Notes under the pieces: model-generated
Databases searched by the model: none
The model's input: the letters and a program-made list of their open reading frames with translations, nothing else
Told to the model about the DNA's origin: nothing
IMG/VR virus record: IMGVR_UViG_3300006133_000325
DNA length: 64,000 nt
Reading direction: 5' to 3' (one strand)
Source of the DNA: a virus
Lineage: Duplodnaviria; Caudoviricetes
Program-made: the position numbers and the translations under genes
Part shown: one piece after another, positions 4,278 through 53,270 of the stretch
Layout of the letters: each line of letters opens with the position of its first letter
How positions within the stretch are numbered: position 1 is the first letter of the stretch

Positions 4278-4676
4278 AATAAATCATTACTATAAAATTG
4301 ATTTTATTCATTTTATCTATATTTACAAGTGGACATGTTGCTATTTTGACAGAATATTTATAATTTATTTTCTCATATTTTTTATTTTAAAAATATTCTT
4401 GCCCTTACACTCTCTTAAAAAAAATACAATATAGTTTCTTATATTTCCCTTTTATTATTTTATTTTTCCAAAAAAACAGCAAAGAATTATTATTTATTTT
4501 TTTCAAAAATGAGTTGCATTTTTCAGGAAATATATGATAATTATATTAAGGAAATAGTTATGCCATATCAAAATCTCTATATGCTATATAGCTAATATCT
4601 ATTATTTAATTTTGCAAAATTATAAAAATATTTTGACAGTTACTTTATAAATATAGCTCATAACAAGTATAAGGAG

Positions 4677-16140: not shown

Positions 16141-16164
16141 TCCATTTCCTCCTATAAAATAATT

Positions 16165-16340
16165 GTTTGCCTATTTTTTATATGAACAGCCTTTTAAGCT
16201 GGAACATAAAGTAACTCTATATAAAAATCTATCTAAACAGTGATTTTTGGCATAACTTAACCAAGGGTATGCTGTTTTACCACCCAACGAATACAGCGAT
16301 TCAGTTGTCACAATAGAGAGTTTTACGATATTAGATAGAA
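16165..16340 (-). ncRNA. Candidate structured leader RNA upstream of the replication operon
   Basis: 9-bp outer stem 16228-16236/16331-16339, GGGU...ACCC hairpin, possible GCAUA/UAUGC pseudoknot. Confidence 0.35.
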
Positions 16341-16356
16341 ATTATGTTTTCCTTAT

Positions 16357-16388
16357 CCGCTTTGTAGCTATAAAAATCTACAAAGCGG
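16357..16388 (-). terminator. Strong hairpin after phosphoesterase gene
   Basis: Perfect 11-bp inverted repeat CCGCTTTGTAG/CTACAAAGCGG; no clear U-tract on minus strand. Confidence 0.45.
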
Positions 16389-16400
16389 TTTTGATAAGAT

Positions 16401-17232: not shown

Positions 17233-17634
17233 TTAATCAATTCTTTCTACATTCACTGGAAGCCACATATTCGGATTGAAATTTAAAGTATATCTATATT
17301 TTGAAACAGCATTTGCTCCTAAATTTAGATCTTCAACAATATAAGTCACATTATCACTTAACCCCACAAAGTGCTTTACATATGTACCACCATCTTCAAC
17401 GAGGATTTCGAGCTGATTATCATCTACATCTGCCGTGATCGACATTTTTCCAGTCATTTGAAACAATACGTCTCCTTCTATACAGTTAATAACGGTCAAC
17501 TGCCGCACCACATTAAAATTATCCGCCTGTTTGGTCAAGTTATAATTAACTCTATCCGCCTCTGAATCACATCCTGCTAACAACCCTGTCATCATAAACA
17601 CTAACAAAACTAAAAAACAAAGATTTCTTTTCAT
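17233..17634 (-). CDS. Phage lipoprotein
   Basis: Signal peptide with LAGC lipobox. Confidence 0.75.
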   Translation of the reverse strand: MKRNLCFLVLLVFMMTGLLAGCDSEADRVNYNLTKQADNFNVVRQLTVINCIEGDVLFQMTGKMSITADVDDNQLEILVEDGGTYVKHFVGLSDNVTYIVEDLNLGANAVSKYRYTLNFNPNMWLPVNVERID

Positions 17635-17650
17635 GACATAATTTCTCCTT

Positions 17651-17856
17651 TTATCTTGTATTTTTACAAAAATGTTACTAATTCATTTTGATACGGATAA
17701 ATGGATTCAGTGCTTGTATATGTTCATTTCTATTTCCGACACGCCTTGCTAGAGGTTATGCGCACTAACTCAAAGGAGTGTATCGTTCGTGTTTATATTT
17801 TTGCGTCTTATCCTGCTATTATCCGTATCCGTTTTGGCTGAATGAGTACAAGATAA
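17651..17856 (-). ncRNA. Candidate ~200-nt multi-stem ncRNA
   Basis: Nested perfect stems 17651-17660/17847-17856 and 17690-17700/17819-17829 enclosing further hairpins; strand inferred from operon. Confidence 0.5.
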
Positions 17857-17955
17857 TTTTTCTATCTTTTAGAAAAACTAAATTGAGCCTTAAATTTCAT
17901 CCATTTAATCATGAGGAACTTACTTCATGAACCAGTTAGATTTTGATACTTACTT

Positions 17956-18669
17956 CTAGTAAATAATACCAATACTACGCATATATCCCTCCTCTAAATC
18001 TAAAACAGTTTCAATAGCTGACTTGTCCACGTTACATCTTTCTGCAATGAAGTTAATTGCTTCACCAAAATCATATACAATTTCTTTATCTTCTACATTA
18101 TCCATTTTATTATCCTCTTTTCCTTCTTTGTTTTTCTTCTTGTTACTATACTTATCCCCATACAAATGAAATTTGAGTTCCATACGTTCATTATCTTCAA
18201 TATCTTCTAAACTAAAGAAATCTTCTATTTTCTTTCCGTCTGCAATTATAAGATACAAATTCCCTGGTTTACTTAGATATGTTTTTTGTGCTTCATTTGA
18301 ATTATCGTCGTCTCCTACCCAATTAGCCAAATAGTCATAAGACTCTATACAGGCCATTTGCTCTTCTTTTGCATATGGTTTCTCAAATTCAAGCCGAATA
18401 CTTGTTATGTCATTATATTCTTTAATCCTGTCAAATGTCATTTGCTTAAAGTTCTCAACTTCATTCCCGAATTCATACCTTTCCTTATTTGCATCTTTAT
18501 GTATTTCAATAATTATCGTATGCGCTATATTGATTTTATCTATTGAATTACAAGCAATTCTTCTAACAGAAGGCCTAATATCTTCTACGCAAAATTCACC
18601 TATATATTTGCCATCTATTTTTATGGTGTCGCAATTCTCAAATGTTAATTCTACATATTTTAACCTCAA
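17956..18669 (-). CDS. Hypothetical phage protein (possibly two fused ORFs)
   Basis: Long ORF; internal GAGG RBS before MDNVEDK. Confidence 0.65.
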   Translation of the reverse strand: MRLKYVELTFENCDTIKIDGKYIGEFCVEDIRPSVRRIACNSIDKINIAHTIIIEIHKDANKERYEFGNEVENFKQMTFDRIKEYNDITSIRLEFEKPYAKEEQMACIESYDYLANWVGDDDNSNEAQKTYLSKPGNLYLIIADGKKIEDFFSLEDIEDNERMELKFHLYGDKYSNKKKNKEGKEDNKMDNVEDKEIVYDFGEAINFIAERCNVDKSAIETVLDLEEGYMRSIGIIY

Positions 18670-53210: not shown

Positions 53211-53270
53211 ACAATAAATATTGTTAACAATATTTATTGTACAAAATATTTATTGCAAAAAATATTTATT
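53211..53270. promoter_or_regulatory. Operator-like repeat array
   Basis: 30-bp perfect palindrome ACAATAAATATTGTTAACAATATTTATTGT plus two more AATATTTATT copies. Confidence 0.6.

Follow-up and report, generated by a model that had tools for sequence, protein, structure and literature searches.

A conserved, lineage-restricted non-coding region with one conserved long-range helix ahead of a Phage_VG64 lipoprotein gene in an uncultured gut phage

The 64,000-nt stretch of phage DNA analyzed here (the window) contains, between two genes read from the - strand, an intergenic region of 321 nt (17635-17955) which is a real, conserved and lineage-restricted non-coding region with at least one selected long-range helix. 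Judged by comparison of homologs, it consists of a constrained 5' block, a constrained part close to the ribosome-binding site (RBS) of the downstream gene, and a core that drifts and is enclosed by a single selected helix. The reading that we tentatively favor, while granting it somewhat less than an even chance, would have the region serve as the structured leader, or as an intercistronic segment, of an early mRNA of - strand sense and control translation of the Phage_VG64 lipoprotein; in this reading we infer the transcript, its strand, the Shine-Dalgarno (SD) pairing and the translational effect. A preliminary description had placed a candidate RNA of about 200 nt in a narrower interval, 17651-17856. 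This 206-nt span does not behave as a conserved unit: its closing stem is lineage-specific, its core is near-neutral and the most constrained sequence lies outside it. Homologous regions were recovered in three lineages by way of the 237-254-aa upstream proteins and one lipoprotein cluster. Lineage A comprises the window and L104-L106, which are identical to it in this region; lineage B comprises L084, L103 and L095-L100; lineage C comprises L114 and, for the first 105 nt only, L086. The region, its segments and its neighbors are the following.

17956-18669, - strand: upstream gene (in gene direction), encoding a 237-aa hypothetical protein, phrog_2349.
17635-17955, - strand: whole intergenic region, the conserved unit, with full-length homology in the lineage B loci listed above and in L114 of lineage C.
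17943-17972, - strand: candidate promoter over the upstream stop codon (TTGGTA, 18 nt, TATCAA; TATAAA in B and C), read by eye, the consensus scan being silent.
17862-17952, - strand: 5' block, about 90 nt after the upstream stop codon; 82% identity (A versus B) and 89% (A versus C), the best-conserved part.
17909-17916 and 17923-17930: hairpin unit 1 of the 5' block, TCATGAGG/CTTCATGA, palindromic, arms invariant, loop variable.
17890-17895 and 17903-17908: hairpin unit 2 of the 5' block, TTAAAT/ATTTAA, palindromic, arms invariant, loop variable.
Helix-bounded core: 67-70% identity (A versus B).
About 60 nt ahead of the start codon: 78% identity (A versus B), with 83-87% over the last 30 alignment columns.
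17233-17634, - strand: downstream gene, encoding a 133-aa lipoprotein-like protein, Pfam PF25682 Phage_VG64 / phrog_478.

Nearly all large open reading frames (ORFs) of the window, both flanking genes included, lie on the - strand, and genes for a metallophosphoesterase, an AAA_24 ATPase, a single-stranded DNA-binding protein (SSB) and a primase-helicase are found farther downstream. The 133-aa Phage_VG64 product carries a textbook lipoprotein signal peptide and lipobox (...LLAGC; MKRNLCFLVLLVFMMTGLLAGC); the JGI gene call for it begins 36 nt later, and the signal peptide is thereby lost. In Pfam the family (PF25682) nonetheless bears the name "Mycobacterium phage VG64", and the annotation given to phrog_478 is recombination directionality factor; the gene usually adjoins one for a metallophosphoesterase. 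The window belongs to a large phage genome, and a 170,050-bp contig on record encodes a protein identical to the 237-aa upstream one. The closest deposited relative is MT835469, an unannotated 176-kb phage from human feces with a primase-helicase 82% identical, which lacks this whole module. In L008, a related phage from the same JGI sample, a gene of about 66 aa (2726-2925) replaces both the 237-aa gene and the 321-nt region, a comparison that marks the early module as a mosaic hot spot. In other phages (L107-L109, at about 1880-2800), a TIR-domain protein (PF01582/PF13676, weak ThsB_TIR) is encoded two genes past the lipoprotein gene and looks like a defense or counter-defense function in the same early module. 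Elsewhere in the window, the next long intergenic gap, which precedes the AAA_24-SSB-primase genes (16141-16400, 260 nt), contains a hairpin with 11 perfect base pairs and a 10-nt loop (CCGCTTTGTAG; 16357-16388), and overlapping perfect palindromes with 15-nt arms around ACAATAAATATTGTT (53211-53270) form the densest inverted-repeat cluster of the window.

The distance between the flanking genes is held at about 316-326 nt in all three lineages, and the alignment of the core requires only three small indels. As a neutral benchmark we took the four-fold degenerate sites of the two flanking genes, which are 62-64% identical between A and B. Persistence of a non-coding region of this size at such divergence is unusual for a gene-dense phage. 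Measured against the benchmark, the 5' block is under purifying selection and the interior of the core drifts at close to the neutral rate. The strongest constraint falls at 17862-17952, outside the span singled out by the preliminary description. The candidate promoter at 17943-17972 is at best a weak one, proposed from its sequence.

Distribution sets the region apart from the gene that it precedes. Although the lipoprotein gene is widespread (102 viral loci; 6,305 protein clusters or relatives at E<=0.001), the region is absent from more than 80 other loci carrying it (80 viral loci and two closer lineages), where the gap upstream of the lipoprotein gene is usually 5-90 nt in the viral loci and 18 nt in the two closer lineages. 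The region is linked to one form of the upstream gene and not to the lipoprotein gene. This form encodes 237-254 aa and includes a 45-aa C-terminal extension (residues ~190-237) found only in the region-bearing lineages; 194-aa relatives have neither the extension nor the region, and at their loci other genes follow directly. The co-occurrence of extension and region may reflect a functional link or simply shared ancestry. Further copies were not found by any other route. Blastn of the region against 50,697 phage records gave no homolog, and a pattern scan of IMG/VR returned only its own contig and one chance match, L088, within a tail gene of high GC content. Two such scans of JGI metagenomes gave no match, and one of GTDB genomes a single chance match in an Acidobacteria MAG. 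Nhmmer and covariance model R1 detected no further copies over all collected loci, and R1 found no second copy among 83 sources totaling 0.5 Mb. There is likewise no second copy within the window, where the 5' block and the TCATGA pair are each unique; an apparent similarity at 4443-4474 is AT-rich low complexity. A MITE or other small transposable element was discarded on the same grounds (window, 83 sources, IMG/VR, JGI metagenomes and GTDB patterns).

The features noted in the window itself are largely as first reported. The perfect inverted repeats of 10 nt (17651-17660/17847-17856) and 11 nt (17690-17700/17819-17829) and the GGAT/ATCC pairing (17703-17706/17810-17813) are all there, and the G+C content of the core is above that of its flanks (0.39-0.40 versus 0.22-0.31). 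The 3' arm of the outer stem, read on the - strand, does stop at the lipoprotein RBS, ending at 17651 with AAGGAG adjoining at 17649-17644. The claim that no credible ORF exists also holds: none of at least 30 aa occurs on the - strand, and the two found on the + strand, of 46 and 50 aa, match no family and are lost in homologs. No coding potential emerged with genetic code 4 or TAG=Q, by tblastx, or from Pfam searches of small ORFs; the ORFs of the window are not kept in L084, and no protein-level similarity was seen in any frame.

Taken alone, the nested stems are not significant, since nested repeats are common in shuffled sequence, folding energies are only modestly low and those of homologs are weaker. 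The window has 45 perfect inverted repeats of at least 10 nt with a span of up to 300, against 37.6 +/- 6.3 in shuffles, and properly nested pairs of perfect repeats occur in 53% of shuffled windows. For the 206-nt span, the minimum free energy gives z-scores of -2.4 (- strand) and -2.0 (+ strand), and homologs give values from -0.6 to -2.1. The case for a structured element depends instead on what homologs retain. The helices considered are listed here; where no strand is given, the feature is not tied to one.

17690-17700: first arm of P1 (GATACGGATAA), half of a perfect 11-bp inverted repeat.
17819-17829: second arm of P1 (TTATCCGTATC), partner of the first arm.
17703-17713: 5' side of the P1 extension, GGA (17703-17705) and UGC (17711-17713); columns 93-96/202-208 and 102-104/194-196 of alignment A7.
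17803-17816: 3' side of the P1 extension, GCG (17803-17805), UC (17811-17812) and C17816.
17651-17660: first arm of the outer stem, perfect in the window; B and C keep 4-5 of 10 pairs.
17847-17856: second arm of the outer stem, likewise perfect in the window, with 4-5 of 10 pairs kept in B and C.
17720-17730, + strand: 5' arm of the candidate helix P2, forming in all lineages only as + strand.
17775-17786, + strand: 3' arm of P2, partner of the 5' arm.

P1 was defined from the window alone beforehand, and its test in homologs is therefore unbiased. No other part of the region has diverged as much as its arms (59% identity, A versus C), and the helix survives nonetheless: read as + strand, the 11 pairs number 11 in the window, 11 in L114, 10 in L084 and 9 in L095; read as - strand, 11, 8, 9 and 9. 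Changes in the arms across the tree amount to 11 transitions and one transversion (p ~0.01), as compared with 43 transitions to 35 transversions in the rest of the region between the window and L084. Three pairs are compensated, A-U to G-C twice and G-C to A-U once. The extension is mostly invariant, with one or two more compensated pairs (U-A to C-G at A7 104/194; A-U/G-C at A7 94/207). We take P1 together with its GGA/UCC and UGC/GCG extensions as a selected long-range helix. The other elements of the proposed fold fared differently. The outer 10-bp stem, whose changes in B and C are mostly transversions, is either a chance feature or specific to the lineage of the window. Neither the ACACG/CGUGU pairing nor the AGUGC/GCACU pseudoknot can form in lineage B, and most of the inner pairings are not kept in homologs. 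Comparison of homologs supports P1 and its extension and leaves the outer stem, the pseudoknot and the ACACG/CGUGU pairing without support; what remains of the structured element first described is the presence of its stems and the conservation of the 11-bp helix with its extension.

The poor conservation of most of the fold raises the question of whether the 206-nt part has any function at all. Only the ends of the region might matter, the 5' block as a promoter, operator or RNA signal and, at the other end, the RBS region, with a drifting spacer in between in which chance repeats partly survive; such a spacer could descend from an old insertion or from a gene since lost. Chance alone would produce nested perfect repeats as long as these, core identity is barely above neutral, the structure conservation index (SCI) of the window versus lineage B is just 0.39-0.51, and decay of the kind seen in neutral sequence has affected the outer stem, the pseudoknot and the ACACG pairing; moreover, L008 has a small gene at the same position and most relatives manage with a lipoprotein gap of 5-90 nt. 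Yet the P1 arms, which change fastest, do so at an 11:1 ratio of transitions and are still paired, unlike the outer stem, which serves as a control and decays by transversions. Nor would one expect a core kept in length but for three small indels, with no protein-level similarity in any frame to betray a former gene, or a useless 140-nt spacer that lasts in a phage across saturated synonymous divergence. We regard a drifting spacer with functional ends as somewhat unlikely.

The palindromes of the 5' block and the position of the region, which precedes the genes for the AAA_24 ATPase, SSB and primase-helicase by 2-5 kb, invite a different interpretation, that of a DNA-level or single-stranded DNA element of the replication module (an origin, a primosome or priming signal, or a looping operator) using the P1 repeat and the two palindromes as protein-binding or hairpin sites. 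Invariant arms with variable spacers are operator-like, and the C-terminal extension of the upstream protein, predicted as two helices, is confined to region-bearing lineages. However, confidence in the model of the extension is low (pLDDT 53-62) and its match to a helix-turn-helix is not significant (E 0.08). A distance of 118 bp separates the P1 arms, five of the eight changed pairs have lost their DNA symmetry through one-sided transitions, a transition-only pattern is unexpected for a protein-binding repeat, and the region contains no iterons or direct repeats. A DNA element is, on balance, improbable.

If the conserved element acts as RNA, the evidence on its strand conflicts: wobble pairs favor the + strand, whereas gene orientation, purine-rich loops and the predicted SD pairing favor the - strand. 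One-sided transitions in P1 and P2 create G.U pairs on the + strand in eight cases and on the - strand in two, a difference that reaches only p ~0.05. In L114, P1 forms 11 of 11 pairs on the + strand, three of them G.U, and 8 of 11 on the - strand, with three A.C mismatches. P2 (A7 columns 111-121/166-177) has 98% of its cells paired on the + strand, four pairs switching between G.U and A-U; its - strand reading meets C.A mismatches in both L114 and the window. The core scores better on the + strand both in column-shuffle z (-2.35 to -2.77 versus -0.11 to -2.56) and in SCI (0.50-0.78 versus 0.39-0.61). The hairpin signal of the 5' block is found on the + strand only (z of -2 to -3 versus -0.3 to -0.8), where one G.U pair of the block is conserved and an A-to-G change in L095 leaves its pair intact. 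Overall, the + strand structure has 95% of cells paired and seven pairs changed on both sides (slid controls, 32-56% and 0-2 pairs), and the - strand structure 91% and six pairs (slid controls, 36-48% and 0-1 pairs); these counts rest on three lineages and are indicative only.

One could envision from these figures a separate structured RNA transcribed from the + strand, antisense to the surrounding genes, and acting in cis on the lipoprotein leader or in trans. Its layout would be a domain closed by P1 (P1, the extensions and P2) followed by hairpins at 17834-17853, 17890-17908 and 17909-17930. The wobble argument is weakened, however, by L095, by loop composition and by the strand skew itself, since an A-rich sense strand would push one-sided transitions toward G.U on the + strand. 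Purines make up about 70% of the unpaired core positions on the - strand; the + strand has about 70% pyrimidines there and a G content of 8-13%, an unusual composition for a functional RNA. P2 and the small inner hairpins, being derived by consensus folding from the very five sequences in which they are scored, carry less weight than P1. A consensus scan of 17400-18200 for promoters of the sigma-70 type and for terminators found no such site on the + strand, alignment A7 shows none conserved, and no + strand genes lie nearby; the promoter and terminator of its own that a cis-antisense RNA gene would have on the opposite strand were not found within that scope. We consider a + strand RNA of this kind unlikely, and quite unlikely the more specific proposition of an undescribed RNA of ~150-270 nt in a small clade of ~170-kb human-gut phages, with P1-P2 kept through G.U intermediates and the Phage_VG64 gene as its antisense or trans target. 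Classical cis-antisense RNAs, such as P22 sar, lambda OOP and CopA/CopT of R1, are 70-100 nt long, have clear promoters and terminators and usually overlap an RBS. The + strand candidate would resemble them in being a structured RNA opposite the leader of the regulated gene, with stem-loops in both RNAs; it differs in that no promoter or terminator is seen and in that the structured domain lies upstream of the RBS.

On the - strand, consensus and single-sequence folding predict a long-range pairing between two segments of the region.

17914-17931, - strand: candidate anti-SD/anti-start segment (UUCAUGAAGUAAGUUCCU), inside the 5' block, predicted to pair with 17630-17649.
17630-17649, - strand: SD (AGGAG) and AUG of the lipoprotein gene (AGGAGAAAUUAUGUCAUGAA), predicted partner of 17914-17931.

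At most positions of the RBS the pairing probability is 0.44-0.89 in the window and 0.5-1.0 in lineage B, and the mean long-range probability in L114 is 0.63. The duplex energies between RBS and 5' block, -14.1 and -13.5 kcal/mol, are in the top 2-3% of the 60-nt segments of the window. Eight substitutions, every one a transition, have occurred in the arms of the SD helix; three of them preserve a pair, two disrupt one and the remaining three are located in internal loops. Four G.U pairs are possible only on the - strand, and the three pair-preserving substitutions proceed through such pairs; the helix has no compensated pair. Occlusion of the RBS is ordinary in extent (mean P 0.62 versus 0.56 +/- 0.15 over 57 genes of the window, rank 24 of 57), and what stands out is its long-range share, for which the gene ranks eighth of 57. 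Long-range occlusion of the lipoprotein RBS is a coherent idea that these predictions weakly support.

The leader reading would combine these parts as follows. The 5' block, just past the upstream stop codon, would supply the anti-SD/anti-AUG sequence that pairs with the lipoprotein RBS ~280 nt downstream, and P1, by closing off the fast-evolving core, would bring the two ends together. Release might come from ribosomes finishing the upstream gene, from formation of the local TCATGA hairpin instead, or from processing of the long helix. The first route resembles coupling of the RNA-unfolding type, an established mechanism in which an inhibitory structure over a downstream RBS is opened by upstream translation; MS2 coat-lysis, f1 genes VII/IX and E. 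coli rpmI-rplT are examples of such coupling or of long-distance RBS occlusion (PMC12548453). The likeness lies in co-oriented phage genes and a downstream RBS predicted to pair with distant sequence near the end of the preceding ORF. The present case differs in the ~280 nt of non-coding RNA, in a partner that is not inside the upstream ORF and in an occlusion that is predicted, and no stronger than for the average gene of this phage. In the window the anti-SD partner begins about 25 nt past the stop codon, so that a ribosome terminating there would get no farther than the helix base; in lineage B this distance is 4-20 nt. The "Min Jou" interaction of MS2 coat and replicase is another instance of long-distance RBS occlusion. 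Structured RNA ahead of early phage genes is also known from the N-leader of phage lambda, with its RNase III site, and from the RNase III hairpins of the T7 early intercistronic regions; the region studied here shares with them a predicted long helix, formed by sequences on either side of a non-coding stretch ahead of an early gene, and a predicted structure over the RBS, and differs in that its helices are AU-rich and interrupted.

Several observations lead us to favor this leader reading: the - strand orientation of the genes and the lack of a predicted terminator-like site within the region; the kept length, the identity of the 5' block (82-89%) and the compensation and transition bias of P1; pairing of SD and AUG with the 5' block in the - strand ensemble of every lineage, with G.U pairs possible only there; the rank of the duplex energy; and the purine-rich unpaired core, as in known structured RNAs. 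Against it stand the unexceptional RBS occlusion, the SD helix devoid of compensated pairs, the A.C mismatches of P1 in L114 and the breaks of P2 in the window and L114 on the - strand, the better and steadier core z-scores and SCI on the + strand, and a core interior not measurably conserved above neutral.

The region belongs to no described RNA family. No Rfam 15 family (4227 models) reached its gathering score anywhere in the window; at E up to 10, matches in 17500-18100 were at chance level (14-18 bits), and the homolog loci gave nothing relevant. The ribozyme envisaged in the preliminary description found no counterpart among Rfam models (hammerhead, twister, pistol, hatchet, HDV-like) in the window or homologs, and a 6S-like decoy finds no support either, given the absence of a 6S model from the matches at E up to 10 and the unconserved interior. 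With 6S RNA and self-cleaving ribozymes the region has in common a size of ~150-200 nt and a closing helix; it differs from them in having no conserved internal core, its interior being near-neutral. Only the third suggestion made there, a riboregulator, fits the anatomy, as a predicted role. Like a riboswitch or other cis-acting leader, the region shares the (-) strand of the lipoprotein gene and immediately precedes it; a highly conserved ligand- or factor-binding core is not seen (67-70% identity versus 62-64% neutral). As an expression platform, no terminator was found, and the SD-sequestering long-range helix predicted in all lineages shows no covariation and has ordinary strength. A retron msr-msd was rejected, no reverse transcriptase being present among the neighbors (hypothetical protein, Phage_VG64, metallophosphoesterase).

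Whichever strand is used, the fold first proposed is mostly lineage-specific and the constrained sequence adjoins it rather than lying inside. Should the + strand reading be true, the region would encode a new phage antisense RNA. If the - strand reading is correct, an uncultured gut phage would provide a natural case of very long-range (~280 nt) RBS occlusion, with a closing helix around a freely drifting spacer, and the gene so controlled would be a member of Phage_VG64/phrog_478, a family present in thousands of phages and elsewhere tightly coupled to its upstream neighbor.
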